From a virus (Duplodnaviria > Caudoviricetes): a stretch of 55,941 bases of DNA. The translations under genes and the position numbers were made by a program. Of this stretch, positions 9,784 to 55,941 are shown in pieces (the first letter of the stretch is position 1; each line of letters opens with the position of its first letter). The stretch covers positions 1 to 55,941 of the IMG/VR virus record IMGVR_UViG_3300035704_000011. One strand, written 5' to 3'. Under the pieces are notes generated by a model that saw nothing but the letters and a program-made list of their open reading frames with translations, had not been told where the DNA came from and searched no databases.

Positions 9784-11914
9784 GGCTGGCCCTTTCTACT
9801 TCGCCTGGACAGCGCCGGATGAGCTGTGGAGCTCCAGCGTCCTGCGCGAGGACGAAGCAATCTTCGCGATCGAGCTGCGCCAGGTAGAGGGCGATTTCTG
9901 CACCCTGCAGATCGATCTCGTCAACCCGCGGGTCGGCCTGCTGGCGGCCGGACGCGGCCTGTGGAGCTGGCTGTCGTGGACCCCGGCGGGCGGCGACGCG
10001 ATGCCGATCTTCCGCGGCCGTCTCGTCGGCGTGCCAGAAAACCTGCAGGATGAGGTCGTGCGGCTCCAATTCATCGCGCGGCCCGCCGACTACAACGCGC
10101 AAAAGGCGGCCGTCGCGGCGACCCTGCAAGTCGCGCCCTATTGGGATCCGGTGTGGCTCAAGGACAAGGTCGACGATCCCGACACCGTGCTCGAGAGCCG
10201 GCCGGTGCTGTGGCACATCGACCGCGTGACGCTCGCGGTTAGCGTCTCTGACATCATCGACGGCGAGGATGGTACGGTCGACGTCACTGAGGCCGATCAT
10301 TTTTATGACGCGATGACCGTCAGTTATGGTCAGACGCCGCTTCGCGAGGTCACGGTGACCGGAACCGTCACCTGGGCGCAGACGGGCGATGGCACGGTCG
10401 ACCTGACGCCGCCGCTGATCGCCGCGTTTCAGAATTCCGGTTCGCCGCTGGGGTCGCCGCTGATCGCCAGCCTGACGAGCGACGGCCTGTTGTCGTCATG
10501 GCCATCGCCCGGCTCTAACATCGGCGGCGGCTGGTCGGTCGGGATCGATTCCAGCATCGTCAAGGCTGACTGGATCAAGCCGGCCTTTCACAAGGTGGTC
10601 TATACCGACATCGACCCGTTTCCTGTGCCGCCATTGCCGACCAACGACGTGACGGCACCCAGTGTCTGGGTGTATCCGGATTCCTGGTATTTCCCGACGC
10701 CCATTAATAACTTGCGAACTCTGTTGGGTGGCAACGCGGCGGTCAAAACCTGGGGCATCGTGTTCCCGGTCACGCCGCTGTCTGTCCAGTTGATGGCCGA
10801 CTGGATCGCTAACCGCAATCGCTCGGAAACCGTGACCTTCACCCTGTCGGCCGATGTTCAGCCGATTATCACCGACCCTGGCAGCGACGAGAGCACCGCC
10901 CTTACCTATTCCTCGGACGTGATCGGCCAGGCGGTCGATCCGGGCGGTGCCGTGCCGCTCGGCGACCCGGGCCTCGCCAGCTACTTCAAATCTGATCGCG
11001 GCGTGCAGAGCTTCGAATATCTCGTGACATTGGCGCGCGCCAAATTGCTGGCGCGGGCGCGCTGTGTGATCGTCAAATTCGTCGCGCCGTGGGATTTGGT
11101 CATCCCGTGGATCTCGTGCCGTATCAATGTGAAATTGTTCGACGGCCGTTTGCCTGGGGGCGGCGTCATCGGCAAGGTCACCGGCTACGTGCTGACGTTC
11201 AGCGATCAGGGCATCGCGGCCGAGGTGACGCTGGGATGCACGGTCGGGCGGGGCAATACGGTGCAGGGATCGCCCGGCGATCCGACCTACGCCGAGGCGG
11301 GCTATATCGATGGCCCGACCTATACCAGCTTTATCAACGGCCAGATCGACCTCGTGCCGGGCGAGATCACCTATCTGAGCCTCGACAATTTCGACATCCT
11401 CGATGATGGCGCCAATCTTCAGGGCCTCACCGCGTCGAGCGCATTGCAGCCGACGCTGGCGGTCAGCCTCTCGACCCGGTGCACCACGATCCTCGGCAGC
11501 ACAACGGTGCTCAGATTGGGCCCCATCGACGGCCTGGAAAACGGCGGCCTCTACGCGATCGATGATGGAGGCCACGGTTTTATCCAGCCGGGCTCGCTGT
11601 TCACGTTCGACGGAACCAGCGGCGGCACGTTGAGCGTCGGCGCGAGCGCCCACGGAGACGGCATCGACGTGACGATCAGCCGGGCGGCCTCAAACGGCAT
11701 TACGGTAATCAATGGGCTCGCCGACCAGGTTAACGCGGTCAATCAGGCCGCACGCGTAACGGCCATGCCCGACCCGCTGGGGGCATTGAAACGTCTGCCT
11801 ACCACCGTCTGCCTCGAGCTCAGAAGCCTCGATGGCGGCTCGTTCAACACGACATTTCCGATGCAGCTGTCGCAGCTGATGGTGCCCAAGACGATCGACC
11901 TCGAAGCCGCGTAA
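9782..11914 (+). CDS. Tail tip/hub protein
   Basis: MAGPFYFAW start, 710 aa, PIFRGRLVGVP; position in tail module. Confidence 0.75.
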   Translation: MAGPFYFAWTAPDELWSSSVLREDEAIFAIELRQVEGDFCTLQIDLVNPRVGLLAAGRGLWSWLSWTPAGGDAMPIFRGRLVGVPENLQDEVVRLQFIARPADYNAQKAAVAATLQVAPYWDPVWLKDKVDDPDTVLESRPVLWHIDRVTLAVSVSDIIDGEDGTVDVTEADHFYDAMTVSYGQTPLREVTVTGTVTWAQTGDGTVDLTPPLIAAFQNSGSPLGSPLIASLTSDGLLSSWPSPGSNIGGGWSVGIDSSIVKADWIKPAFHKVVYTDIDPFPVPPLPTNDVTAPSVWVYPDSWYFPTPINNLRTLLGGNAAVKTWGIVFPVTPLSVQLMADWIANRNRSETVTFTLSADVQPIITDPGSDESTALTYSSDVIGQAVDPGGAVPLGDPGLASYFKSDRGVQSFEYLVTLARAKLLARARCVIVKFVAPWDLVIPWISCRINVKLFDGRLPGGGVIGKVTGYVLTFSDQGIAAEVTLGCTVGRGNTVQGSPGDPTYAEAGYIDGPTYTSFINGQIDLVPGEITYLSLDNFDILDDGANLQGLTASSALQPTLAVSLSTRCTTILGSTTVLRLGPIDGLENGGLYAIDDGGHGFIQPGSLFTFDGTSGGTLSVGASAHGDGIDVTISRAASNGITVINGLADQVNAVNQAARVTAMPDPLGALKRLPTTVCLELRSLDGGSFNTTFPMQLSQLMVPKTIDLEAA

Positions 11915-18265: not shown

Positions 18266-19288
18266 ATGGCGTACACCCCGCCGGCCGGGAACGCCGCCAA
18301 CTTCAATTTTGCCAGCAGTGGCTATGCGGCCCCCGCAGGGAATGCCGCCAATTTCCCGTTCGGCGTAAGCCCCGCCGCATCGGCGCAACAGGCATGGCGC
18401 CGTTTCAGCGCCGGGTCAGACGAAGCCGAGGACCTGCCATTCCGAGCACGGCGCTTCGCGCCGGCTCCGGCCCCAGGGATGGCGGCCGGCGCTGTCCCGT
18501 GGCGACGGCCCTTCTTCGCCGAAGAGGATGGCGAGCCCGACTGGCAGCCGCGACGCGGGCTGGCCGCGCCGATCCAGGCGTTCCTCAGTGGGCTTTCGCG
18601 CGAGGTCCTCGCCAGCGCTGCGGCCGATGCCAATCTTGGCGGCCTGGCGCGGGAGATCCTCGCCAGCGGCCCGGCCATCGCCGATCTCGGAGGCCTCGCC
18701 CGCGAGATCCTGCTCGGCCAGGAGACCGTCGGGCAGCTGGGCGGGCTCGCCCGCGAGATATTGGTCTCCAGCGCGGCAGGCGGCCGGCAGGCGGCGCTGG
18801 TTCGCGAAATCGTGCTGGGCCAGGCGATCACCACCGATCTCGGTGGCATCGCCCGCGAAACGCTGGTCAGTCGCGCTGCGGAAGCCGCGCTCGCCGGCCT
18901 CGTACGCGAGATATTGGTCGGGCCGCCGGTCGCCGCCGAGCTCGGCGGCCTGGCGCGCGAAATCCTGGTTTCCGCCGCGCCCGACGGACATATCGGCGCG
19001 CTCGCCCGCGAGGTCCTGCTCGGCCGCCCGGCCGAGGCGCGCCTTGCGGCGCTGGCGCGAGAGACTCTGACCGCTGTTGCGGCGACAACGTTCTTTGGCG
19101 GCATCGCCCGCGAAGTACTGGTCTCCGGCCCGGCGGCGGGAACGGCAACGTTCTTCGGCGGCCTCGCCCGCGAGACACTGGTCAGCAACGTTGCGGATGC
19201 GCAGCTCGCCGGCCTCGTGCGCGAGGTGCTGATGGCGCGGCAGCGGCCGCGGATGCGCCGGCCATCGGTGCAGTGCTGGCCCCTGTAA
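18266..19288 (+). CDS. Repeat-rich structural protein (about 16 copies of a ~14-aa LGGLAREIL repeat)
   Basis: Duplicated YxPPAGNAANFxF N-terminus, then tandem repeats. Confidence 0.7.
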   Translation: MAYTPPAGNAANFNFASSGYAAPAGNAANFPFGVSPAASAQQAWRRFSAGSDEAEDLPFRARRFAPAPAPGMAAGAVPWRRPFFAEEDGEPDWQPRRGLAAPIQAFLSGLSREVLASAAADANLGGLAREILASGPAIADLGGLAREILLGQETVGQLGGLAREILVSSAAGGRQAALVREIVLGQAITTDLGGIARETLVSRAAEAALAGLVREILVGPPVAAELGGLAREILVSAAPDGHIGALAREVLLGRPAEARLAALARETLTAVAATTFFGGIAREVLVSGPAAGTATFFGGLARETLVSNVADAQLAGLVREVLMARQRPRMRRPSVQCWPL

Positions 19289-23531: not shown

Positions 23532-23999
23532 TTAGACATCTATGTCGCTCGCGCTAGACACCCAATTCCAAAATCCTTGCGCACCGCGGTGCGGGATAGG
23601 CGGTTCGAAGCGCTCGATGCTCGTAAGCGGCCAGGCGAATTTGTGCGCATCGATCCGATCACTGTCGAATTCCCTTTTCCAGTTGGTGCGCACCCATTCG
23701 AGCGCCGGCACTGACCTGCCAATGATCGCCGTGCCGAGGATCGACGACAGCGGCCAGGATTTGGTGTGAACGGTAGCCAACAGTGGGCGCGCGATTTCGC
23801 AGATAAGAGACGTCTCCTCGTCGTCGATGCGGGCGATGATGTCGGCGATCTCATCCGCCCGCGCCGGCCGCGCGCCTGCGTGGAGGGCGATGCGCTGCCC
23901 AACGATCCGCTTCGGACAATACCAGCTTCGCCATTCGACGGTCTTCGCACCGGCGATGATCAGGCTACACCAAGGCTGCCAAATCGTGAGGGCTTTCAC
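23532..23999 (-). CDS. ASCH domain protein (copy 1)
   Basis: ALTIWQPWCSLIIAGAKTVEWRSW...IALHAG...RGAQGFW. Confidence 0.85.
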   Translation of the reverse strand: MKALTIWQPWCSLIIAGAKTVEWRSWYCPKRIVGQRIALHAGARPARADEIADIIARIDDEETSLICEIARPLLATVHTKSWPLSSILGTAIIGRSVPALEWVRTNWKREFDSDRIDAHKFAWPLTSIERFEPPIPHRGAQGFWNWVSSASDIDV

Positions 24000-25030
24000 T
24001 TCCGCCTCGGCCTGAGCTTCGCGACCGCCGCGACGGCGCGCTTTTTGCGATCCGCTTCCTCGCTGTAGTGCGCGGCCATCTGCAGGGTCTTGTGGCCGAG
24101 CAGCGCGGCGATGGTGCGCGAGTCGGCGCCGCGGTCGGCGAGCAGCCGACCCGCCGTGTGACGTAGACCGTGGAAAGTCAGCCCCGGCCGCACCTTCCCC
24201 TCTACCTGGAGCTTGCGGACGAGCCGGAAGAACATGACGCGGAAGCCGTTCCCGCTGTAGGGCCGCCCGCTCTGGTTGGCGACCAGGGTTAGCGCGACGA
24301 TATGAATCCGACTTTCCGACTCGGCGTCCAAAATGGTCTTTAGCTGCGGGTGCACCGGCAGCTCGACCAGTGATCCGGTCTTGCCCTGCGACCAGCGCAG
24401 CCAGCTGCCGTCATAGATCGACCGCTGCGCGCGGATGACGTCGCCCTCGCGCATGCCCGCAAACATGCCGAGCGCGATCCCGACCTTAAGGCCGCCAGAG
24501 GCTGCCGCGAGCACCACATCGCACTCGTCTGGGTCCCATGCTCGATTAGCTTGTGGCGTCCCGCGCGGCCGGCGCAATTTCGGCACGGTCGCCGCCTGGT
24601 TGGTTTCGACCAGGTCGCGCACGGCTCCCCACTTCAGCAACAGCCGCAGCACGCTCAGGACATAGTTGGCGAACCGCCGCCTGTGCGCCTGGAAGGCCGC
24701 GTCCCGCACCTCGATCACGTAGGCCGAGGTGATTCCGAGCAGCGCGTCACCATCGAGTGGCCGCAGATAGTCGAATACCTTTTGATAGTCAGCCCGTGTC
24801 CGGGGTGCGAGCTCGAGGAACTCCGGCGAGCGGTGATAGGCGGCGATCAGCGCGCCGAGTGTTCCCGGGTTCGGCGCCTGCGGCCGCTGGCCGTCTAGCC
24901 GCTCAACCTCAGCCAGGAATGCGGCGGTGCCGAACGGTGCGTGGATGCGGGTGCCGGTGCGCCGGTGGTAGGCGTAGAGCCTCCCGCGGCTGCGGTAGAG
25001 CTTAACGCCGCGCACCTTGATCTCCACCAT
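23996..25030 (-). CDS. int: Tyrosine integrase
   Basis: GMREGD, QGKTG, FHGLRHT, LGHKT...HY catalytic motifs. Confidence 0.95.
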   Translation of the reverse strand: MVEIKVRGVKLYRSRGRLYAYHRRTGTRIHAPFGTAAFLAEVERLDGQRPQAPNPGTLGALIAAYHRSPEFLELAPRTRADYQKVFDYLRPLDGDALLGITSAYVIEVRDAAFQAHRRRFANYVLSVLRLLLKWGAVRDLVETNQAATVPKLRRPRGTPQANRAWDPDECDVVLAAASGGLKVGIALGMFAGMREGDVIRAQRSIYDGSWLRWSQGKTGSLVELPVHPQLKTILDAESESRIHIVALTLVANQSGRPYSGNGFRVMFFRLVRKLQVEGKVRPGLTFHGLRHTAGRLLADRGADSRTIAALLGHKTLQMAAHYSEEADRKKRAVAAVAKLRPRRK

Positions 25031-25826
25031 CGGCCATCCCCCGCACCGCAGAGAGGACAGCTTTCGCCACCGCGCGGCCCATGGCAAGCGGGACGCCGTT
25101 CCCTACAGCCTTGCGCTTGCTGGTCGCCGCAAGCGGGCAATCCTTATCGGCCAGGAAATCCGGTGGCAGCCCCTGCAGCTCGCACATGCGCGACAGCGGC
25201 ATTGCCCGTCCTGTGGTCGGCAGCCGCCCACCATCCCATCCTCGGTTCAGGCACGACGATCGGCCGCCGCTCTCAGTCGGTTTCCGCAATCCGCCCTTTA
25301 GCTTACCACTACCGCCGATTTTCACTGGAATTATTTCGCGCGCATCGCAAGTCACCGCTCGTTCCGGGTCTGGCCGATGAAGCGCAAGCGTGTCGATCCT
25401 AAGCCGGGTGCTGTCCGGCGAGCCAAAGCTGAAGCGGCGCTGTCGGTTGGTCAGTCCGCCAACCCAAACATCGCGGAGAATTTCGTCGCGGACGTGATAG
25501 CCCTCGACCGATGGGAGCGGCGCGTCTGGCACGTTCTCCATCAGGAACCATCCTGGCCGCGCCTCGGCAACGCACCGATCAAATTCCGGGGTCAGGTTTT
25601 CGGCTAGCTGATGGCCGTTTGCAGAGATGATGAACCGCAGCTTGCTGAATGCCTGGCACGGCGGGCCGCCTATCACGCCATCAAATTTGCCGGCTGGCGG
25701 ATGGAACTGCTTAATATCGCCGCCCCACAGCAGATCCGGCCCGCGCACGACACAAAAGCCGACCTCCTCGAAGGCCCGGTCCAAAAGGCCTATTCCTGGA
25801 AACAGGGACAGCACCAGTTTCATCAC
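25002..25826 (-). CDS. DNA cytosine-5 methyltransferase
   Basis: SLFPGIG, GGPPCQ, MENV, RQRRF, VGNGVP motifs. Confidence 0.92.
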   Translation of the reverse strand: MMKLVLSLFPGIGLLDRAFEEVGFCVVRGPDLLWGGDIKQFHPPAGKFDGVIGGPPCQAFSKLRFIISANGHQLAENLTPEFDRCVAEARPGWFLMENVPDAPLPSVEGYHVRDEILRDVWVGGLTNRQRRFSFGSPDSTRLRIDTLALHRPDPERAVTCDAREIIPVKIGGSGKLKGGLRKPTESGGRSSCLNRGWDGGRLPTTGRAMPLSRMCELQGLPPDFLADKDCPLAATSKRKAVGNGVPLAMGRAVAKAVLSAVRGMADGGDQGARR

Positions 25827-32549: not shown

Positions 32550-32863
32550 ACGAGGCCCCGGGACAGCTCGATCGCCGCCTGTTGAATCGTAATTACAGCC
32601 TTGTCCGCATGCGCTTGCGCTTTATGCCGAGCGCTCGCTGCCGCGTCGCGGGTGTCATAAACCAGCGCGGCGTCGAACCACTGCGGTCGCGAATACCGGC
32701 CTTGTGGATCGTGCTTGCTGCCGGCAACTTCAAGACAGATCTGCAGCCGCCCGGCACGGGTGCGCTCAGCCCGACCTTGGAGGAAGCACAGCCTAGCAAG
32801 GCGAGCTCCGGGCCCGGCTACGAGCCAGCGGATGTTGTCGGCGGCGGCGGCCGGCGCGATCAT
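32546..32863 (-). CDS. Hypothetical protein
   Basis: Coupled ORF. Confidence 0.5.
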   Translation of the reverse strand: MIAPAAAADNIRWLVAGPGARLARLCFLQGRAERTRAGRLQICLEVAGSKHDPQGRYSRPQWFDAALVYDTRDAAASARHKAQAHADKAVITIQQAAIELSRGLV

Positions 32864-34143
32864 CCCGCCGCTCCGGCGAGCGACTGGAATTCCGCGATCC
32901 AGCCCTCAACGATCATCGCCAGTTGATTCGTCGCTGGAGTGTCGCCCTTGTGGATCCCGAGAAACCAACGCTCAATCTGCCGATCAGAATTGGCAAAGCC
33001 GAGTTCACTTAACGGCACGCGCCGAATATTGGCGATCGTTCCAGCCAAGCAGGCGCAATCGCCGGTGTAGGTCGATCCGTCTATCCGACCTTCGCGTAGG
33101 GCGGCGAGCAGGCCAGGGATCTCGGGCTGCGCGCGCAATAGAACATCCCAAAAATCATTGCGGACGCCGTCGAGGCGGGCGCCGTCGAGGCTGGCGCCGA
33201 AGAGGCTGGCGCCGTCGAGGCGGGCGCCGTCGAGGCGGGCGGCGTCGAGGCTGGCGCCGACGAGGCTGGCGCCGAAGAGGCGGGCGCCGTCGAGGCGGGC
33301 GCCGTCGAGGCGGGCGCCGTCGAGGCGGGCGGCGTCGAGGCGGGCGCCGACGAGGCTGCCGCCGTCGAGGCTGGCGCCGAAGAGGCGGGCGCCGACGAGG
33401 CTGGCGCGGTCGAGGCGGGCGCCGTCGAGGCGGGCGCCGTCGAGGCGGGCGCCGTCGAGGCGGGCGGCGTCGAGGCTGGCGCCGTCGAGGCGGGCGCGGT
33501 CGAGGCGGGCGCCGTCGAGGCGGGCGGCGTCGAGGCTGGCGCCGACGAGGCTGGCGCCGTCGAGGCTGGCGCCGAAGAGGCGGGCGCCGACGAGGCTGGC
33601 GCGGTCGAGGCGGGCGCCGTCGAGGCGGGCGCCGTCGAGGCGGGCGCCGTCGAGGCTGGCGCCGACGAGGCTGGCGCCGACGAGGCTGGCGCCGACGAGG
33701 CTGGCGCGGTCGAGGCGGGCGCCGTCGAGGTGGGCGCCGTCGAGGCGGGCGCCGTCGAGGCGGGCGGCGTCGAGGCTGGCGGCGTCGAGGCTGGCGCCGA
33801 CGAGGCTGGCGTCGAGGCGGGCGCCGTCGAGGCTGGCGCCGACGAGGTGGGCGCCGTCGAGGCGGGCGCCGTCGAGGCGGGCGGCGTCGAGGCTGGCGCC
33901 GACGAGGCGGGCGCCGACGAGGCTGGCGCCGTCGAGGCGGGCGCCGTCGAGGCTGGCGCCGACGAGGCGGGCACCGTCGAGGCTGGCGCCGTCTGAGACT
34001 ACGATCTCAAGCGCGGCACGAAGGTACCATCGCTCTTCGTAGGCCGGGATCTGCACCTCAAGTGAGGCGCGGCCCGTCCATCTGAGGAACGGGATCTTTA
34101 CGGTGATGGTGCCGGTAGCGGCGTCGGCGTCGTCGTCTGGCAT
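32860..34143 (-). CDS. Pentapeptide repeat protein
   Basis: About 55 A(R/S)L(D/V/F)G repeats between non-repetitive ends; GGAGGGGAG RBS. Confidence 0.92.
33163..33993. repeat. 15-bp tandem repeat tract encoding the pentapeptides
   Basis: Near-identical gccgtcgaggcgggc units; one 12-bp unit near 33805. Confidence 0.95.
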
Positions 34144-34170
34144 GCTCCCCTCCCGCATATTGTCCGAGCC

Positions 34171-34223
34171 ACGATATTTGCATTCATGCACATTGGTCAA
34201 GAGGAAAGTTTGCAATTATGCGC
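34171..34223 (-). promoter_or_regulatory. PL-like promoter and OL operators
   Basis: -35 TTGACC (34200-34195), -10 TATCGT (34176-34171); TTGCA-N4-TGCRC boxes at 34178-34191 and 34210-34223. Confidence 0.75.
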
Positions 34224-40704: not shown

Positions 40705-41640
40705 ATGACGTTGTCGGTTCGCCTGCTCGGCTCTTTGGTGATTGAAACGGGGGATCGCGGGCTCGGGAAAATCCCGAAGAAAGCTCGCGCCCTGCTCGCC
40801 TTTCTTGCCGCTCAACACGGCCAGCCCGTCGCTCGCTCACGAGTGGCGGACATGCTCTGGCCGTACCAGGGACATGAGCAATCCCTCCACAGCCTACGTA
40901 ATTGCCTAATGGAGCTGCGCAAGGCTTTGGGGCGGGGTACAGACACTCACTTAGCCGCCGACTATGTGCGCTGCCGGATCCAGGACGCCGCCGTTGACCT
41001 TGTACAATTTGAGCAGCTATCGCGTTCCCAGCGGTTTTGTGACCTGCAGGCGGCAGCCGATTTGTACCGCGGCGAGCTCCTGGACGATGTCGAGATAGAT
41101 TCCGAGCCGTTTCAGGAATGGCTGACGGCGGAGCGTCGCCGGACACTCGCTGTGGCGTGCGATATCTTGCAACGATTGATGACGATGCACGATGCTGCCG
41201 GCGACCACGACGCGGCGATTCAGTGCGGCCGACGGCTAGTTTTTCTCGACCCGTTCGCGGAATCAGGACAGCGCGCCTTGATGCGCGCATATGCCGGTGC
41301 GGGGCGTCGTAGTGAAGCGCTCCTCCAATATAGGAGCTGCGCCGAGACACTGAAGCGCGAACTGGGCGTCGCGCCTGACACCGAGACGCAGTCGTTGGCG
41401 ATAGAGATTGGGGGTTCGAAGATGGCTATAATCGAGCGATCTATACCTCCAGCGAGACGGATCAGCTGTCCGGCCGCTGATGCGCTAATCCCGCTCGGCA
41501 TTGAATTGGGTAATGCGATCGACGGTGGTGCGAAATTGCGGCGCGGGATGGCTGTCGAGATCGTCAGCCACATAAAATCGCTCGGGGATTTTTTTGCATC
41601 AGCAGCGTCGCGCTCCTCCTGCTCAGAATCCTCATATTGA
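40705..41640 (+). CDS. SARP/AfsR-family regulator (wHTH plus BTAD)
   Basis: VRLLGSL, KARALLAFLA, SLRNCL.ELRKAL, LYRGELL, DPFAE, ELGVAP..ET. Confidence 0.9.
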   Translation: MTLSVRLLGSLVIETGDRGLGKIPKKARALLAFLAAQHGQPVARSRVADMLWPYQGHEQSLHSLRNCLMELRKALGRGTDTHLAADYVRCRIQDAAVDLVQFEQLSRSQRFCDLQAAADLYRGELLDDVEIDSEPFQEWLTAERRRTLAVACDILQRLMTMHDAAGDHDAAIQCGRRLVFLDPFAESGQRALMRAYAGAGRRSEALLQYRSCAETLKRELGVAPDTETQSLAIEIGGSKMAIIERSIPPARRISCPAADALIPLGIELGNAIDGGAKLRRGMAVEIVSHIKSLGDFFASAASRSSCSESSY

Positions 41641-43800: not shown

Positions 43801-44044
43801 ACCTCTGGGAGATTTTGTTTCCCTGTTAGATAATTAGCCGAGCGAGGCGCTGCCCCGGTTCGCAGCCGGAGCAGCACCTCTGACCACAGCGAGATGAGGC
43901 TCGCAGATGGCTTCTCGGAATAAAGATAACTCCCCGATTTTTACGCAAGTGTTGAGGCGCGTCGAGCTCCCTCGCCTCGTCAAACGGGCGTCTGGTGACG
44001 TAAAAAATGGCTCGCACGAACAAATAGATAATAGGATCCGTGAA

Positions 44045-44773
44045 ATGGCCCGCAAGATCAGTGGGTTAGAGTATGCGGACCGCAGATATATCGCCTACTA
44101 CCGCGTTTCAACGCTTCAACAAGGGGCTTCTGGACTTGGTTTAGAGGCCCAGCGCGAAGCGGTAGGTCGATATGTTTTTAGCGTGGCTGGCGAGATCATT
44201 GCTGAGTTCGAGGAGATCGAAAGCGGCAAGCGATCAGAGAATCGACCCAAGCTGATCGAAGCTCTAGCCCACGCGAGGGCGACCCGCGCGACGCTCGTGA
44301 TTGCGAAGCTTGATCGCCTGGCCAGGAACGTGGCTTTCATCAGTTCGCTGATGGACGCCGGCGTCGACTTCATCGCGGCCGATATGCCGATGGCCAACAG
44401 ATTAACAGTCCACGTTCTGGCCGCGGTAGCCGAGCACGAACGTGAGATGATCAGCGTCCGAACGAAGGCAGCGCTTGCTGCGGCAAAAGCCAGGGGCGTG
44501 AAGCTTGGCAATCCTAAGCTTCGCGCCGGCGATCGCGAAAGCGCGCGCGCGGCCTGCCGTGTTCGGGTGGCAAAGGCGAACAAGATCGCAAGCTCGATCA
44601 TGCCATACATCGAGGCTGCGCGAAGTGCTGGATGCAGGACTCTCGCCGAGCTGGCCGACGCGCTGACCGCTCGCGGCATTAGAACTCCCGGAGGCAAATC
44701 TAAATGGAGCGCGGAACAGGTGCGTCGGATAACGGCGCGGCTTTCGATGAGCGCGCGTTCAATATCAAGCTAG
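44045..44773 (+). CDS. Serine recombinase (resolvase/invertase family)
   Basis: YYRVST..Q..SGLGLEAQ, AKLDRLARN, ERE.IS.RTK.AL. Confidence 0.93.
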   Translation: MARKISGLEYADRRYIAYYRVSTLQQGASGLGLEAQREAVGRYVFSVAGEIIAEFEEIESGKRSENRPKLIEALAHARATRATLVIAKLDRLARNVAFISSLMDAGVDFIAADMPMANRLTVHVLAAVAEHEREMISVRTKAALAAAKARGVKLGNPKLRAGDRESARAACRVRVAKANKIASSIMPYIEAARSAGCRTLAELADALTARGIRTPGGKSKWSAEQVRRITARLSMSARSISS

Positions 44774-46667: not shown

Positions 46668-48672
46668 ACCGAAAACTGCGCTGGAAGCTGCGGAGAAATT
46701 ACGAGGGCTCGTTAGGGCCGCGATTACCGAGGCGCTGCGGCCGCCGCTGCGCATCAGCCTGCCGGAGTGGGCCGATACATACCGCCGGCTGTCGCGCGAC
46801 AGCGGCAGCATCGGCGGGGCCTGGCAGACGAGCCGCGTTGCGGTCGCGCGCGGCCCGATGATGGCGGTGACCGAGCCCGGGGTGCAGGTCATCACGCTGA
46901 TGGTCGCGACCCAGCTGCTCAAGACGAGCGTCTTGGAAAACGTCATCGGCTACTACGCGCACACCGACCCATGCCCGATGCTGCTGGTGCAGCCCAAGGA
47001 CGAAGCGGCCGACTCGTTCTCGAAGGAGCGCCTCGCGCCGATGATCGCGGCGACGCCGATCTTGCGCGAGCTGATGGGCGACCAGCGCACGCGGCGCTGG
47101 GAAAACACGCTGGGGTTTCGCAAATTCCCCGGCGGGTCTCTGGCGATCGTCTCGGCCGGAAGCCCGACCAACCTGGCGATGCGCGCGATCCGCGTCACCT
47201 TGCTCGACGAGATCGACAAATACGAGACGAGCAAGGAGGGCGACCCGGTCGGGCTCGCCGAGGAGCGCAGCGCCACCTTCACGACCCGGCGGCTGTCGAT
47301 CCGGGCCTGCTCGCCGACCTGGGAAGAGACCAGCCGGATCAACCGCTCTTACAACGAGAGCGACCAGCGGCGCGCCTTTGTCCCCTGCCCGCATTGTGGA
47401 CACTCACAAGACCTCGACTTCTTCCGGCACGTCCATTGGGAGAAATCCGAGGACGGCCGGCACCTACCCGAGACCGCGCATATCGGCTGCGAAAGCTGCG
47501 GCGTTGTGTGGAGCGAGGCCGAGCGGCTTCTCGCGCTGCAGCGGATCGAGTGGCGGCAGACCCGGAAAATCACCTGTTGCGGCGAGGCGCAGGACCCGCG
47601 CGCGACCCGGTCGTGGCTATGGGACGCCAAGACCGAGGTCGGTTATGCGACTTGCACGCATTGCGGCAAACGAGCGGTGCCGCACCGGCACGCCGGGTTT
47701 ACCGCATCGAAGCTCTACAGCCCATGGCTGACGGTCGTGGATCTGGCGAAGGCGTGGATCGTCGCCAAGGACGATCCGGAATCGAAGCAGACCTTCTACA
47801 ACACGCAACTCGCGCTGGCCTACAAGACCGAGGCGCTGAAGGAACTCGGGCACGAGGCGCTGCTGCGCCGCCGCGAGCATTGGGAAGCGGTGCCGGACGA
47901 GGTGCTGGTCATCAGCGCCGGCGTCGACATGCAGGACAACCGGCTCGAGGTCGAGGTCGTCGGCTGGGGGCTCGGCGAGGAAAGCTGGTCGCTGGCCTAT
48001 GAGATTTTCACCGGCGACCCGGCGAAGAATGAGGTTTGGAGCGAGCTCGACGAATTCCTGCTGGCGCCGCTGACGCGAGCCGACGGCAGGGCAATGGCTA
48101 TCCGCGCCGCCTGCATCGATAGCGGCGGTCACAACACGCAGGACGCCTACCGCTTCGCGCAGGCTCGCATCGGCCGCAATGTGTGGGCGATCAAGGGCGC
48201 CTCCGACCGCGCGCAATGGTCGCCGATCTGGCCGAGCTCGACGCGGTCGAAGGGCGGTCGCTACCGCGCCGGCTATCGGCCTATCATCCTTGGCGTCAAC
48301 GCCGCCAAAGAGGCGGTTCGCCAGCGCCTACTGATCGCCGAGCCGGGACCCGGATATTGCCATTTCCCGGTCGGACGATCGGCCGGCTATTTCGAGCAGC
48401 TGACCAGCGAGCGGCTGGTCATCGAGCGCAAGGGCGGCACGTTGCTGCGCCGCTGGGTTTTGCCGGCGCACCGCGCTGCCGAGGCGCTCGACTGCCGGGT
48501 CTACGCCTATGCAGCCCTGTGGGGTCTCTATCACCTGCGCCGCCTGCGGCTCGATCGCGCCGCGCAGCTGATCAACGATGCGCCGCCGGCGGTCGCTGCG
48601 CACGCAGCGGCGCCGACGGCAGGCGCAACCATGCGGCCGCGCTCGCGGCACAGCAACTTCGTCAGAGGTTAA
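46660..48672 (+). CDS. Terminase large subunit (lambda gpA family)
   Basis: TQLLKT (variant Walker A), LLDEID, CSPT, GVDMQ, CIDSGG, EALDCRVYA. Confidence 0.95.
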   Translation: MAEPKTALEAAEKLRGLVRAAITEALRPPLRISLPEWADTYRRLSRDSGSIGGAWQTSRVAVARGPMMAVTEPGVQVITLMVATQLLKTSVLENVIGYYAHTDPCPMLLVQPKDEAADSFSKERLAPMIAATPILRELMGDQRTRRWENTLGFRKFPGGSLAIVSAGSPTNLAMRAIRVTLLDEIDKYETSKEGDPVGLAEERSATFTTRRLSIRACSPTWEETSRINRSYNESDQRRAFVPCPHCGHSQDLDFFRHVHWEKSEDGRHLPETAHIGCESCGVVWSEAERLLALQRIEWRQTRKITCCGEAQDPRATRSWLWDAKTEVGYATCTHCGKRAVPHRHAGFTASKLYSPWLTVVDLAKAWIVAKDDPESKQTFYNTQLALAYKTEALKELGHEALLRRREHWEAVPDEVLVISAGVDMQDNRLEVEVVGWGLGEESWSLAYEIFTGDPAKNEVWSELDEFLLAPLTRADGRAMAIRAACIDSGGHNTQDAYRFAQARIGRNVWAIKGASDRAQWSPIWPSSTRSKGGRYRAGYRPIILGVNAAKEAVRQRLLIAEPGPGYCHFPVGRSAGYFEQLTSERLVIERKGGTLLRRWVLPAHRAAEALDCRVYAYAALWGLYHLRRLRLDRAAQLINDAPPAVAAHAAAPTAGATMRPRSRHSNFVRG

Positions 48673-48676
48673 GCAA

Positions 48677-49084
48677 ATGAAGGTTATGAAAGCTGTCCTG
48701 ACCTGGGGCATGCCAGCCACGCTGGCCTTGCTGGTCTCGTGCTCGCCTGCAATGGCGGCCAGCACGACGACGTCGAACGTAGTGATTACCGTCAAGCACT
48801 CTGCGGCGGTCATCGCTGTGGCGCCTAGCGCACCAAGTATTTTCGACGACCTCGCCGCCGGCCAGATCGTCTTTGTCGCGACGGTGACGATGACGAATGG
48901 AAAGGCTTTCGCCGGCCAGGTCAGCTTTTCCGATCCCAGCAATGTGTTCAGCCTAGTGCCGGCGAGCCCTCAAACGACACCCCCATCGTGGAACGTGGTT
49001 GTGGGCGCAAACGGTCTGCTGAGCATGATCCCGGCGGGCCAAGCGCAAATTATTGACACCGTGTCGATCACCGCGAAGCCGTAA
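48677..49084 (+). CDS. Exported cadherin/Ig-like protein (moron)
   Basis: Signal peptide ending AMA-A; beta-sandwich resembling C-terminus of 7125-7886. Confidence 0.65.
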   Translation: MKVMKAVLTWGMPATLALLVSCSPAMAASTTTSNVVITVKHSAAVIAVAPSAPSIFDDLAAGQIVFVATVTMTNGKAFAGQVSFSDPSNVFSLVPASPQTTPPSWNVVVGANGLLSMIPAGQAQIIDTVSITAKP

Positions 49085-49088
49085 AAAA

Positions 49089-49298
49089 ATGGCGGATGAT
49101 GCTGCGAGCCAGCTCGCCGCGCTCAAGAAAGCAAGAGCCAGCGGTGTGCTGACCGTGCACCACGGCGACACGTCGACGACGTTCCGCACGCTGGCGGAAA
49201 TCGACTCGATCGTCCGCAGCCTCGAAGCCGAAGCCGAGGCCGCCAGCAGCCCGCGCCCTCGGTTGCGCTACGCGGTTCAGCTGACCAAGGGCCTCTGA
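49089..49298 (+). CDS. Head completion protein (gpW-like)
   Basis: QLAALKKARASGVLTV.HGD....FRTLAEI. Confidence 0.88.
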   Translation: MADDAASQLAALKKARASGVLTVHHGDTSTTFRTLAEIDSIVRSLEAEAEAASSPRPRLRYAVQLTKGL

Positions 49299-49307
49299 AG
49301 GATAGCG

Positions 49308-50198
49308 TCAGGCCGCTGCGCGCGGCGTGTCTTCGGCGGGATGCACGCGCAATCTGGGCTCCAAATCAGAGCCGGCATCCCGCCACGCCCGCCACAGATC
49401 GCGCAGCAGGCGCTTTGTCATATAGCGGCGCGCGTCGGCATCGGCGTGCGCCGGGGTCCAGCCGCGGGCCAGCACCCAGGCCTTGCGCTCGGCGTAGGCC
49501 TCGCCGTAGGGACCGATCGGGTGGGCTGGCGCATCGTCCTTGGCGCCGCGCCACTGCGCGCGGAACAGCACGTCGGAGCAGAAGACCCAGACCTCGGCGC
49601 GGCGTTGCCGGTTGTAGCCATGCCGGATCCAGTCATCCTTGGTGGCGCCCTCGCCGGGGCTGCCCTGGCGGTGACCGTCGAAGACCGCGAGGCCGAGCCG
49701 CTTCCACAGCTTTGCGGGGTTGGCATAATTGCCGAGATCGCCGGCCTCGCCGACGATAACGGCAAGGCCGAGCTCGCCGAAGCCGCGGACGGCGTGGACG
49801 AACGAGATTGCCGGCAATGCGCGAGCCAGCTTGATCATGCGCTTCTCGACATCGCCGCGCAGCTGGTCCCAGGTGGCGCGCGACGCCGCCGATGCGATGA
49901 CCAGACGCGGCAGGTCGCTATTCGCCGGGAACTGGTCGATCTTGCCGCCCTCGATCTCGCGGCGCAGCTTTGCGGCTGCGCTGAAGAGCGCCTTCCGCTC
50001 GGCTGGGACAAGGCTGGTATGGTAGCCCGACGACCGCGCCAGCAGCGCCTCGATCGAACGATCGCAGCGCTGCTGCTGGCGGATGCAAAAGATCCTGTGG
50101 CGTTGCCGCTCAATAAGATTTTCGCAGGCCTCGCTGACGGACATGTTCCCCAAGGGGGGCAGCGTCGACCCGGTCCGTCCGGCGCGGTCGTCAGGCAT
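49308..50198 (-). CDS. IS110/Nop-fold RNA-binding protein without nuclease domain (TasA-like); alternative start at 50144
   Basis: Coiled coil, VRGFGELGLAVIVGEAGDLGNYANPAKLWKRLGL, YNRQRR, ARRYMTKRLLRDLWRAW match the IS110 C-terminal half; no DEDD RuvC or HNH. Confidence 0.82.
   Translation of the reverse strand: MPDDRAGRTGSTLPPLGNMSVSEACENLIERQRHRIFCIRQQQRCDRSIEALLARSSGYHTSLVPAERKALFSAAAKLRREIEGGKIDQFPANSDLPRLVIASAASRATWDQLRGDVEKRMIKLARALPAISFVHAVRGFGELGLAVIVGEAGDLGNYANPAKLWKRLGLAVFDGHRQGSPGEGATKDDWIRHGYNRQRRAEVWVFCSDVLFRAQWRGAKDDAPAHPIGPYGEAYAERKAWVLARGWTPAHADADARRYMTKRLLRDLWRAWRDAGSDLEPRLRVHPAEDTPRAAA
49335..49384 (-). ncRNA. Guide-like hairpin unit 5 (3' end of Tas-like gene)
   Basis: GGCGGGATGC-CG-gctctgatt-TGGAGCCCA-gattgcgcg-T-GCATCCCGCC. 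Confidence 0.8.
50136..50179 (-). ncRNA. Guide-like hairpin unit 4 (5' end of Tas-like gene)
   Basis: GACGGAC-CG-ggtcgacgc-TGCCCCCCT-tggggaaca-T-GTCCGTC. Confidence 0.7.
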
Positions 50199-50862
50199 TC
50201 GGCGCGCTGGTCGCGAGTTTCCAGCAGAGCATGATCTCGTCGTCGGAGCGCTCGCCGATCAGCATCGAATCGGGCATGCCCTCCGTGACCAGGGCGGCAA
50301 AGCGCACCCATGCGCCTTGGGCGAGGCCCCAGGCGCGCAGCTCGCCGGCCGAGAGCTGCGCGAGCTGTTTGCCGTTGATGACATGGTCGAGCAGGAAGCA
50401 GCGCTTGGCTCGCTCGACCGCAGCCTGAGCCGCGGTTGATGGCCCAGCTGGCGGACGGGCATCACGGCTTTGGGTATCAATTGCGGAACGGCCCGTCGCG
50501 CTCGGCTGGGTTTGGTGTGGTCTAGCCGCGGGCTGGGCATGCGGGGGCTGGGCATCGTGCCCTTTATGGCCTGACCCGGGGCTGGATTTCGCTTTGTTGC
50601 GCTCACGCATTTCGTGCAGCACCTGTCTGAACAGGTGGAGCATGGCCGGCCCGCGGACCTCGGCGACGAGCTCCCAGATCAGCGCTGCGGCATCATCGTC
50701 GGCGAGCAGCGTCTGCTCGAAAACGACGAGAGACGGCTCGGGGATGCCCTTGCCGATGCGGATCGCTGCCGCCATGAGCGAGCGCAGCCGCTCGGCGGCC
50801 GTCTGAAACCCGGCTGCCCGCATGGCGGTGCCGACGGTCGTGGGTGTTTCGATCTCTTGCAC
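50191..50862 (-). CDS. Tas-associated hypothetical protein whose linker is encoded by two guide units
   Basis: GTG start with AGAGGGGGA RBS; two helical domains joined by a P/Q/H/A-rich linker. Confidence 0.75.
   Translation of the reverse strand: MQEIETPTTVGTAMRAAGFQTAAERLRSLMAAAIRIGKGIPEPSLVVFEQTLLADDDAAALIWELVAEVRGPAMLHLFRQVLHEMRERNKAKSSPGSGHKGHDAQPPHAQPAARPHQTQPSATGRSAIDTQSRDARPPAGPSTAAQAAVERAKRCFLLDHVINGKQLAQLSAGELRAWGLAQGAWVRFAALVTEGMPDSMLIGERSDDEIMLCWKLATSAPNA
50454..50497 (-). ncRNA. Guide-like hairpin unit 3
   Basis: GACGGGC-CG-ttccgcaat-TGATACCCA-aagccgtga-T-GCCCGTC. Confidence 0.82.
50530..50577 (-). ncRNA. Guide-like hairpin unit 2
   Basis: GGGTCAGGC-CA-taaagggca-CGATGCCCA-gcccccgca-T-GCCCAGCCC (imperfect stem). 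Confidence 0.72.
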
Positions 50863-50879
50863 AGGCTTCCCCCTCTGCT

Positions 50880-50933
50880 GCGGGTCGCGGCATCAGTGAA
50901 ATGGGCGGCAAACTTATTAGGGCCGCAACCCGC
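50880..50933 (-). ncRNA. Guide-like hairpin unit 1 (5' leader)
   Basis: GCGGGTTGCGGC-CC-taataagtt-TGCCGCCCA-tttcactga-T-GCCGCGACCCGC. Confidence 0.8.
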
Positions 50934-50939
50934 GGGCCG

Positions 50940-50973: not shown

Positions 50974-52515
50974 ATGCCACTGGACGGGCCGCGCATCCTC
51001 GACCGGTACGGCAATCCGGCGCGCCGCGCCACCGGGCTCAACCCCGGCGCCATCGGCGGAACCGCCGCATCGCCGCATGCCTCGTGGGATGCCGGCCAGA
51101 CCGGGCGCCGCCTCAGCGCGATCCCGACCGCGGCGCGCTCGATCAACACGCTGCTGCGCAGCTATGGCAAGGCGGTGCTGGCGCGGTCGCGCTACCTGGC
51201 GGCTAACAACCCTTATGCCGCGGCGGCGCGCGAGGCCTACATCAGCTCGATGGTCGGCTCGGGCATTATCCCGTCGCCGAATTTCGACGACGCGAAATTG
51301 AAGGCGACGGTCAATCAGGTCTGGGATGACTGGACCGACGAGGCGGACGCCGACTGGATCACCAATTTCTACGGGCTGCAGTCGATCATTGCCGGCGAGC
51401 TCTTCGAGGCCGGCGAGGTCTTTGTCCGGTTCCGCCCGCGCATGCAGCAGGACGGTTTTATCGTGCCGCTGCAATTGCAGGTGCTGCCGGCCGAGATGCT
51501 CGATGCGAACTGGAACCGGAACCTCAACCTCGGCAACGGCAGCCGTATCGAGTGTGGCATCGAGTTCGATGCGATCGGGCGACGCCGCGCCTACCACTTC
51601 TGGGCCACGTTCCCCGGCACCGACCAATATTTCGGGGTGGGCCCATGGACCCGGATCGCGGTGCCCGCCGACCAGATCCTGCACATCTACCGGCCGATCC
51701 GCGCCGGCCAGCTGCGCGGGATCCCGCACACCCTCTCGATGATCACGACCTTGGCGTTGCTTGATCTCTACGACGACGCCGAGCTCGAGCGGAAGCGCGT
51801 CGCGGCGCTCTTCGGCGCCTTTATCACGCGGCCCGACCGCGACGACGAGGACCACCCGCTCGGGATGGCGCAGAACCTGACGACACCGCGCGGCGACGTG
51901 CAGCCGAGCCCGGCGCTGGAGCCGGGTGTGACGGTCGATCTGGCGCCCGGCGAGGACATCAAATTTGCCGAGCCGGCCGATGTCGGCAGCACCTATGAGC
52001 CATTCCAGTACCGCTGCCTGCTGCGGGCCGCCGCCGGCGCCGGCATACTCTATTCGGACATGACCGGGGACCTGCGGCGCACCTCGTTCGGATCGATCCG
52101 CGCCGGCCTCATCGCGCACCGCCGGCGCGTCGACACACTGCAGCAGTCGGTGATCATCTATCAGCTGTGCCAGCGGGTCTATAACCGTTGGTGGACTGAG
52201 GCGGTGTTAGCCGGCGCGTTGCCGGTCAGCCCGGCCGATTTTGCGGCCAATCAGCGGATGTACCGCCGCGCCGACTGGATCCCGCCGAAATGGGACTGGA
52301 TCGACCCGCTGAAGGACATCGAAGCCGAGCAGCTCGCGGTGCAGAACGGATTCAAGTCGCGCAGCGCCGTCATCAAAGGGACGGGACTGGACCCGGCGAT
52401 CGTCGACATGGAACGAAAACAGGATTTCGAGCGCGAGACGAGGCTCGGCCTGCCGCATACAGAGGCCCAGCCGCCGCCGCCGGTTCCGGCCGGCGCGAGC
52501 GGGCCATCGGAGTGA
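50974..52515 (+). CDS. Portal protein (lambda family)
   Basis: ARSRYLAANNPYA, RAGQLRGIP, TGDL....FGSIRAG, WDWIDPLKD. Confidence 0.95.
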   Translation: MPLDGPRILDRYGNPARRATGLNPGAIGGTAASPHASWDAGQTGRRLSAIPTAARSINTLLRSYGKAVLARSRYLAANNPYAAAAREAYISSMVGSGIIPSPNFDDAKLKATVNQVWDDWTDEADADWITNFYGLQSIIAGELFEAGEVFVRFRPRMQQDGFIVPLQLQVLPAEMLDANWNRNLNLGNGSRIECGIEFDAIGRRRAYHFWATFPGTDQYFGVGPWTRIAVPADQILHIYRPIRAGQLRGIPHTLSMITTLALLDLYDDAELERKRVAALFGAFITRPDRDDEDHPLGMAQNLTTPRGDVQPSPALEPGVTVDLAPGEDIKFAEPADVGSTYEPFQYRCLLRAAAGAGILYSDMTGDLRRTSFGSIRAGLIAHRRRVDTLQQSVIIYQLCQRVYNRWWTEAVLAGALPVSPADFAANQRMYRRADWIPPKWDWIDPLKDIEAEQLAVQNGFKSRSAVIKGTGLDPAIVDMERKQDFERETRLGLPHTEAQPPPPVPAGASGPSE

Positions 52516-54953: not shown

Positions 54954-55941
54954 ATGCCGATGCTTGACGTATTCCGAACTGATGCATTTTCGGTCACGAG
55001 CCTGACCGATGCGATCAGCAAGATTAAATATGTGCCGGGCCGCATTGGCAGCCTGGGCCTCTTCCGCGAGAGCGGCGTCTCGACCACCTCGGTGGTGATC
55101 GAGGAGCGCAACGGCGTCCTGACCCTGGTCGCGCCGACCCCGCGCGGGGGCCCCGGCCACACGATGCCGCTGCTGACCCGCGCCGCGCGCTCGTTCCGCG
55201 TGCCGCATTTCGAGGTCAATGACAACATCATGGCCGAGGAGGTCGAGGGCGTGCGCTCCTTCGGCTCAGAAACCGAGGTCGAGACCGTGCAGGGCAAGGT
55301 CGGCGATCACATGATTGACGCGACCAACTCGCTGGCTGCAACGCAGGAATATTCCCGCGTCGGCGCGGTGACCGGGATCATCACCTATGCCGACGGCAGC
55401 ACGATGAACCTGTTCGACGAGTTCGACGTGACCCCGCCCAGCGACGTCTATCTCGACCTGGAGGCGATGAGCCCGGTGTTGGGCGCGTTGCGCGTGGCGA
55501 TCACCGGGATTGCGCGCACGATCGGCAACGAGCTGAGCACCGTGCCGTTCAGCGGCCTATATGCGATCTGCGGCGACAATTTCTATGACACGCTGATCGC
55601 CCACCCAGAGGTGCGGGCTACTTATCTCAGCTATGCGGCAGCGGCCGATTTGCGGGCCCCGACCGTCAGCTCGCCGGCAACCGGCGGCAGCTGGGGCGCC
55701 TTCCCCTTTGCCGGCGTCATGTGGGACAATTATTTCGGCAAGGTCGGCTCGACCGATTTTGTCGATACCGACGAGGCGCAGATCTTCCCGCTCGGCGTGC
55801 CCAACCTGTTCCGCACCTATTACGCTCCGGCGGATCTGGTCGAGACCGTCAACACGATCGGCATGCGGCTCTATGCCAAGCAATACGAGATGCCGAACGG
55901 CAAGGGTGTGCACCTCGATATGCAGATGAACGGCCTGGAGA
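54954..55941 (+). CDS. Major capsid protein (lambda gpE family), N-terminal part; ends at 183 after circularisation
   Basis: MPMLDVFRTDAFSVTSLTDAISKIKYVPGRIGSLGLF...; AGGAG RBS; absent from ORF track because its stop is across the junction. Confidence 0.93.
   Translation, partial: MPMLDVFRTDAFSVTSLTDAISKIKYVPGRIGSLGLFRESGVSTTSVVIEERNGVLTLVAPTPRGGPGHTMPLLTRAARSFRVPHFEVNDNIMAEEVEGVRSFGSETEVETVQGKVGDHMIDATNSLAATQEYSRVGAVTGIITYADGSTMNLFDEFDVTPPSDVYLDLEAMSPVLGALRVAITGIARTIGNELSTVPFSGLYAICGDNFYDTLIAHPEVRATYLSYAAAADLRAPTVSSPATGGSWGAFPFAGVMWDNYFGKVGSTDFVDTDEAQIFPLGVPNLFRTYYAPADLVETVNTIGMRLYAKQYEMPNGKGVHLDMQMNGLE

Follow-up and report, generated by a model that had tools for sequence, protein, structure and literature searches.

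A stem-loop-type TIGR-TasA module with five predicted tigRNA guides in the genome of a temperate soil phage

The virus record IMGVR_UViG_3300035704_000011 of IMG/VR, analysed here over its whole length of 55,941 bases (the window), carries among its head genes a gene for a Tas protein of the RNA-guided TIGR-Tas systems and five short repeated units. This locus raises the question of whether the units are guides and, if so, to what DNA they would direct the protein. An initial annotation had supposed a TIGR geometry, in which a target is read as spacer A followed by the reverse complement of spacer B, and had listed five 18-bp targets on that basis. We found that the region has the anatomy and the family membership of a TIGR-TasA module, and that the phage holds no self-targets. 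In our assessment it is very probably a module of the stem-loop type, carried by a complete temperate phage, with five tigRNA guides whose targets are most likely external.

The module is an oppositely oriented insert between the genes for a gpW-like adaptor and the portal protein (Table 1). Read 5' to 3' on the minus strand it consists of the intergenic unit u1, the open reading frame (ORF) P0002 with u2 and u3 inside it, u4, and tas with u5 in its tail. The record's own call for tas begins at codon 19 (M19) and gives 278 residues; the start is probably this one, at 50144. The Tas protein matches NCBIfam model NF052498 (TIGR_Tas_endo, 'TIGR-Tas system RNA-guided endonuclease') with an e-value of 7.9e-18 and 65.2 bits, which is under the 100-bit cutoff, and the same model matched all 50 of 50 aligned members of the Tas family. 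Pfam returned nothing significant for Tas (Transposase_20, e-value 0.076), no nuclease family was seen among the Pfam or NCBIfam matches, and a sequence search against the PDB gave nothing meaningful. The protein is matched by 865 database proteins at an e-value of at most 1e-5; among the best 120 of these there was no Pfam domain, and the sole functional name was one 'ParB-like nuclease domain' label. A close metagenomic homolog (P0103, 70% identical to the Nop domain) has an ORF that continues into a ParB-like N-terminal segment, recalling the TIGR-ParB association reported in PMC12045711.

An AlphaFold2 model of Tas, obtained from the homolog alignment, is all-helical and of high confidence (predicted local distance difference test, pLDDT, 89.1; predicted template modelling score 0.82). 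Low confidence is restricted to the stretches that u4 and u5 encode (residues 1-18 and 278-296), the C-terminal tail having a pLDDT of 49. When the model was compared with the PDB using Foldseek, ranks 1-10 were all chains of TasR (9mty) or TasH (9vzx, 9w04, 21kl, 9w02, 9w03), followed by IS110-family recombinases and Nop5. Thus, the NF052498 match, the model and the Foldseek results concur in the Nop domain and the coiled-coil dimerisation region that typify TIGR-Tas proteins. The N-terminal RuvC or HNH nuclease domain of TasR and TasH is absent from this protein of 278-296 residues with its all-helical model, and the lack of a nuclease domain assigns it to the TasA class.

All five units lie on the same strand as tas in a 1.6-kb stretch, each with a 27-nt core made up of a 9-nt spacer A, a 9-nt loop and a 9-nt spacer B. 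Every one of them reads CCN-N9-[T/C]GN4CC[A/T]-N9-TG, with the box D of the loop being TG in four of the five, the box C of the loop CCA in four of the five, and the 3' box D TG throughout. In place of edge repeats the cores are flanked by palindromic stems, as is characteristic of the stem-loop subtype, and when a unit is folded alone its closing stem encloses a 30-nt interior. The fold z-scores were -3.17, -3.14 and -3.11 for u1, u3 and u5. No Rfam family covers the units, the sole match being a sub-threshold sRNA (e-value 0.27).

Table 1. The tas module and its borders in the window; u1 to u5 are the guide units, and all positions are those of the window.
Feature	Coordinates	Strand	Core	Perfect stem	Sequence elements	Remarks
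u1	50876..50937	-	50893-50919	12 bp	5' box C CCC, spacer A TAATAAGTT, loop TGCCGCCCA, spacer B TTTCACTGA, TG	intergenic
P0002	50191..50862	-				223 aa; overlaps longest tas ORF; non-conserved linker carries u2 and u3
u2	50522..50585	-	50540-50566	3 bp	loop CGATGCCCA	weakest unit; in non-conserved linker of P0002
u3	50450..50501	-	50462-50488	7 bp	loop TGATACCCA	in P0002 linker
u4	50132..50183	-	50144-50170	7 bp	loop TGCCCCCCT, spacer B TGGGGAACA	between P0002 stop and probable tas start
tas	49308..50198	-				TasA type (coiled coil and Nop domain); longest ORF 296 aa
u5	49330..49389	-	49346-49372	11 bp	loop TGGAGCCCA	in low-confidence C-terminal tail of tas
head-tail adaptor (gpW-like)	49053..49298	+				phrog_2545, e-value 1.9e-12; left border, converging on module
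portal	50974..52515	+				phrog_21, e-value 1.9e-89; portal annotations in phage records; right border, diverging from module

These units are not a product of chance. Across both strands of the window the strict pattern CCN-N9-TGN4CCA-N9-TG matches just u1, u3 and u5, and the stems that flank these three are perfect over 7-12 bp. With a relaxed pattern the matches in the window number 11, and those with clear flanking stems are the five units. In 685,190 bases from 80 unrelated terminase loci, the relaxed pattern with a stem of at least 6 bp is found six times, at scattered sites, and these 80 loci hold no relative of Tas or P0002. Over five whole phage records (the window and four relatives), requiring a stem of at least 5 bp leaves matches of the pattern in tas-adjacent arrays only, with 6, 5, 3, 6 and 4 units. 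We also constructed a covariance model solely from 33 units of relatives and searched it over the whole window with filters off. Of the 72 matches listed, ranks 1-4 went to u3 (33.8 bits, e-value 1.9e-5), u1 (50884-50929; 30.6 bits, 1.1e-4), u5 (25.4 bits, 1.7e-3) and u4 (21.3 bits, 0.016). Because the model comes from relatives alone, these four units are independently supported, with u2 plausible but weak. The same search returned a doubtful match at 48909-48965 on the plus strand (19.3 bits, e-value 0.047), a hairpin whose 8-bp stem has CCA following its 5' arm and TG preceding its 3' arm, with a 41-nt interior that lacks a canonical loop and has a 19-nt insertion at the loop position; it lies on the strand opposite to tas, within the ORF 48578-49084.

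The relatives from which the model was derived come from eight loci with Tas proteins of 35-44% identity, one in a Geminicoccaceae metagenome-assembled genome and seven in IMG/VR. Units of the same architecture are present on the tas strand in seven of the eight (12, 6, 5, 0, 3, 3, 6 and 1 units), mostly in tandem with a spacing of 52-72 nt within arrays, and have the form stem-CCA-N9-TGxCxCCCA-N9-TG-stem. In an ungapped alignment of 33 such units, C8, C9, G21, C26, C27, T38 and G39 are invariant, the stem cells are paired in 97.3% of cases, as against 65.3% in shuffles, and both partners vary at seven of the eight stem pairs. For the inner pairs this evidence is in part circular, because a stem of at least 5 bp was used in selecting the relatives' units.

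The embedding of units in coding sequence appears to have left a trace in the proteins. In P0005, a Tas homolog of 70% identity, the residues that derive from the stems and loop of u5 are kept (WRAWRDA...L[E/K]P...VHPAED), while the spacer-encoded residues differ (GSD/RLR against DIS/LVD). Many Tas homologs (P0005-P0012) end in L[E/K/P]P-xxx-[V/I/M][P/H]P[A/S] after WRAWR, with variable spacer-encoded residues, and one locus (L003) has a unit at the u5 position with different spacers. We take this C-terminal pattern, on the protein sequences compared, to be the imprint left in the protein by a tigRNA that lies within the 3' end of tas. P0002 has no Pfam, PHROG or NCBIfam family, gave no usable feature match in Atlas, and its own structure model is poor. 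Its single homolog, P0124, is conserved at residues 23-82 and 148-199 only, an identical 15-residue stretch included. The linker across the u3 loop reads IDTQSRDA in P0002 and FDTQHDA in P0124; given this amino-acid shadow of a tigRNA loop, P0124 probably carries a unit too, and P0002 may function as an accessory protein within this TIGR clade.

The reading of the units as guides in the initial annotation is borne out, in that they are genuine stem-loop tigRNAs adjoining a Tas gene, and joining each spacer A in the window sequence to the reverse-complemented spacer B reproduces all five of its 18-mers. This order should be the right one, since the 3' overhangs of the published cleavage pattern (PMC12045711) arise only in this way; by our own working, the order with the reverse complement of B before A would give 5' overhangs. 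The u1 target is indeed very AT-rich for this genome (4 of 18 positions G or C, against 63.7% G+C in the window). No match backs the suggestion that it therefore represents a promoter or foreign DNA: every exact match falls in an unrelated contig, the G+C content of these contigs being 22-49%. Since u1 is the sole unit in non-coding DNA, its AT-richness may instead reflect freedom from coding constraint.

Searches of the phage itself, on both strands and for all five guides in four geometries (A plus reverse-complemented B, the reverse of that order, A plus B, and B plus A), gave no matches at 0-2 mismatches, which bears out and extends the earlier statement that the genome holds no full match. 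Once the array is masked, two sites in the window match at 15 of 18 positions, one for u4 at 10452-10469 and one for u5 at 18794-18811, both within ORFs. When 25 guides were compared with their own five whole records, arrays masked, there were no matches at 0-1 mismatches, one at two and three at three. Controls scaled to 25 queries gave about 0.5-2 matches at up to three mismatches (mispaired 0.47, cross-record 0.75, shuffled 1.0, reversed 1, other geometries 1-2), and the excess of self-matches over controls is at most faint. The match at two mismatches lies in the relative G154 at 41304-41321 (L122 1501-1518), where the spacer A half agrees at 9 of 9 positions and the B half at 7 of 9; the site is within ORFs with no regulatory context, and shuffled spacers as a control, scaled to 25 queries, yield about 0.02 matches at that mismatch level.

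External collections were searched in the A plus reverse-complemented B order, and the metagenome contigs with u1 only. In IMG/VR, u1 had exact matches in four stretches, all from contigs of a single lineage whose G+C content is about 30%, and u2-u5 had none; as a control, the u1 9-mers in guide form (A-N9-B) were found exactly in eight stretches of four lineages, all AT-rich and none tigRNA-like, and u3 in guide form was not found in IMG/VR. In species-representative genomes (596 billion bases), u3 had 10 exact matches and u5 had 15, scattered over unrelated phyla with unrelated flanks. The chance expectation for an 18-bp site in a collection of this size is about 17 (2 x 596e9 / 4^18), so that finding a target requires the context of host or sample along with matched controls. 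Among 151 genomes from the order to which a Devosia metagenome-assembled genome belongs, u1 gave nine matches at up to two mismatches, all at two, compared with 19 for the reversed control; u4 gave none at up to one mismatch in 301 alphaproteobacterial genomes (control 3), and u2 none at up to one mismatch in 121 (control 0). JGI metagenome contigs had 27 stretches with exact matches to u1, and each of the contigs concerned had between 22 and 49% G+C. As match rates equalled those of controls wherever both were measured, they furnish no independent support for DNA targeting; the absence of targets from databases is itself inconclusive because the phage host was not identified.

Stem-loop TIGR-TasA systems are already known (Faure et al. 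2025, PMC12045711; Xu et al. 2026, 10.64898/2026.09.09.750476; PlTasA, 10.64898/2026.08.11.744272), and these sources describe stem-loop arrays, intragenic stem-loop tigRNAs, flexible unit positions and the action of TasA as a repressor, the last three in 10.64898/2026.09.09.750476. The window system resembles them in its phage-borne, nuclease-less Nop-domain protein, its two 9-nt spacers with box C (CCA-like) and box D (UG) and a 9-nt loop, its variable palindromic stems, and the placement of units upstream of, inside or at the ends of tas. It differs from them in that its units are scattered over 1.6 kb instead of standing in tandem, with two of them in the linker of a separate upstream ORF and not in tas, in its mostly CCG or CCC 5' box C, in the lack of CUU at the stem bases, in an NCBIfam score of 65 against a cutoff of 100 and, as far as the published description goes, in having a unit, u4, that overlaps the point where translation of tas begins. 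The dual-repeat TasR and TasH systems (9mty, 9vzx, 9w04) provide the best structural matches (e-values 1e-4 to 1e-2, template modelling score by query 0.42-0.51) and share the tandem-spacer logic and box C/D motifs; however, sequence identity is a mere 14-18%, and the window system lacks a RuvC or HNH domain as well as a conserved edge repeat and a regular 36-nt unit. The bridge-RNA recombinases of the IS110 family (IS621, 8wt6 and 8wt9; ISCro4, 9t56) have a similar coiled coil and Nop-like RNA-binding core (ranks 12-14), but neither a DEDD/RuvC catalytic domain nor a C-terminal Tnp serine domain was detected in the window Tas, there are five simple units in place of one two-loop bridge RNA, and no transposon ends were seen, though none were sought. 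Box C/D snoRNPs (Nop5, 3id5 and 3icx) likewise have a Nop-domain fold and dual guides framed by boxes C and D, but the structural match is weak (template modelling score 0.25-0.29), the target of the window system is presumed to be DNA, and no fibrillarin or L7Ae partner genes were noted among the ORFs examined.

By homology with these systems, a TasA dimer would bind each processed RNA at its box C/D motifs, and each strand of a contiguous 18-bp DNA site would then pair with a different spacer, one with A and the other with B; such opposite-strand pairing of the two spacers, within a single unwound region, is described for PlTasA (10.64898/2026.08.11.744272). Given that Tas is devoid of a nuclease domain, the expected outcome would be binding and transcriptional blocking instead of cleavage. 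The natural targets would be outside the phage genome, most likely in the host or in rival mobile elements. Expression and processing of the tigRNAs, their binding to DNA and the ensuing repression are thus predictions, with the DNA targeting argued from homology only.

Several observations weigh against the region being a set of five functional guides. The unit u2 has a stem interrupted by an internal loop (3 bp, two mismatches and 5 bp, eight pairs in total), a fold z-score of -2.07 and a covariance-model match that is not significant (16.2 bits, e-value 0.25, rank 9). The fold of u4 is no better than that of shuffles (z-score -0.13), and its sequence is intertwined with the start of tas: the ATG of codon 19 is made up of the last base of spacer B and the box D, and spacer B holds a Shine-Dalgarno-like GGGGA, which is likely to be the Shine-Dalgarno sequence of tas. 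Translation, and not a target, may hence be what constrains this spacer, or guide processing and tas translation may be coupled at u4. The 5' box C is CCA in one of the five units only (CCG in three, CCC in one). The start-to-start spacings are 431, 78, 318 and 798 nt, such that only u2 and u3 are adjacent, in contrast to the tandem arrays of relatives. The CUU conserved at the stem base, which marks the processing site in stem-loop systems (Xu et al., 10.64898/2026.09.09.750476), has no counterpart within about 10 nt of the stem base in any of the five (as CTT); in the 33 relatives' units CTT stands at the 5' base in four and at the 3' base in seven. A simple scan found no sigma-70-like promoter for the module, no RNA run containing the window stretch was found (the sole run recovered being a DNA run of a soil metagenome that may be its source), and none of the searches for a natural target in external collections gave a match pattern above control or any recurrence in a plausible host lineage.

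The weakness of u2, the poor fold of u4 with its loop ending in CCT and its spacer B bearing the ribosome-binding site and ATG, and the dispersal of the units are also what one would expect if the array were partly vestigial, with u2, u4 and perhaps other coding-embedded units no longer acting as guides and their spacers, shaped by coding and translation, pointing to meaningless targets. We consider this improbable, although it is the most credible of the rivals: the tandem arrays of relatives also contain loops that start with CG and loops that end in CCT, intragenic stem-loop tigRNAs are reported to be expressed (10.64898/2026.09.09.750476), and in homologs the scaffold residues are kept while the spacer-encoded ones vary. 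A still less likely alternative is that the guides bind imperfect sites, matching at 15-16 of 18 positions, in the phage's own genes and so tune their expression. The four self-matches of the 25 guides at two or three mismatches would be in line with this, but the excess is small and alternative geometries reach 1-2, the three sites inspected (two in the window and one in G154) are all in ORFs rather than regulatory regions, and most single mismatches abolish the activity of ParTasR (10.64898/2026.07.30.739390).

Were the RNAs to guide TasA to RNA, or to have a snoRNA-like or structural role, there would be no DNA target to find, as none was found, and the relationship of the fold to Nop5 and Prp31 box C/D proteins (Foldseek ranks 38, 45 and 50) would be accounted for. 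However, the closest folds are those of the DNA-targeting TasR and TasH, TasR is inactive on RNA substrates (PMC12045711), and DNA binding by TasA proteins has been reported (10.64898/2026.09.09.750476; 10.64898/2026.08.11.744272), which together leave little room for such a role. Next to negligible is the prospect that the units are chance motifs in G+C-rich DNA adjoining an IS110-like remnant, which the PHROGs label of Tas, 'transposase', and its weak match to the IS110 model NF033542 (e-value 6.5e-5) might have suggested; the pattern, stem and covariance-model statistics contradict it, and the match spans profile positions 118-295 of 343 only, with no RuvC-like segment in an all-helical model. 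An outright IS110 transposase, with its DEDD RuvC-like and Tnp domains and single bridge RNA, was likewise rejected, the partial match scoring 22 bits against a cutoff of 140.

The stem-loop TIGR-TasA module, which we therefore prefer as the explanation, is set in a complete temperate lambda-like phage genome from soil. The last 127 bases of the window are identical to the first 127 (1-127 and 55815-55941), and this terminal repeat at both ends denotes a complete, circularly assembled genome, in which the major head gene spans the junction. The head module comprises genes for the small and large terminase, gpW-like adaptor, portal, protease, decoration and major head proteins, and elsewhere there are genes for a tyrosine integrase, a YqaJ-like recombinase, a pentapeptide-repeat protein and a serine recombinase. 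The nearest relatives of the large terminase, in Devosia, Cellvibrionaceae and Bradyrhizobium assemblies, are 58-61% identical, and the large terminase search yielded no prophage close enough for a host to be assigned. The tyrosine integrase (23996-25087, minus strand) is encoded alongside a serine recombinase/invertase-like protein (43907-44773, plus strand). The gene for the 451-aa pentapeptide-repeat protein (32860-34215, minus strand) contains a 15-nt tandem repeat of 55.8 copies (33160-33993), and a 63-nt tandem duplication of 93% identity (6048-6175) lies in a 950-aa ORF (4000-6852) that has no Pfam match and whose position suggests a tape-measure protein.

The natural targets and the biological role of TIGR-Tas are an open question according to the authors in the field (PMC12045711; 10.64898/2026.09.09.750476). 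Here, a complete temperate phage carries five guides of which none has a near-perfect self site, and this argues against simple self-regulation and in favor of external targets. As a tentative extension, which we hold to be possible though rather unlikely, TasA and the five dual-coded guides would act in lysogens as a programmable repressor of host genes or rival phages, that is, as a moron for immunity or host takeover. Its guides would be interlocked with translation, in that tas would take its ribosome-binding site and start codon from spacer B of u4, and the P0002 linker houses u2 and u3; excising a guide would destroy the tas mRNA and so confer built-in autoregulation. Whatever the targets, guide units that double as coding sequence and translation signals constitute a concrete and testable design feature of this module.

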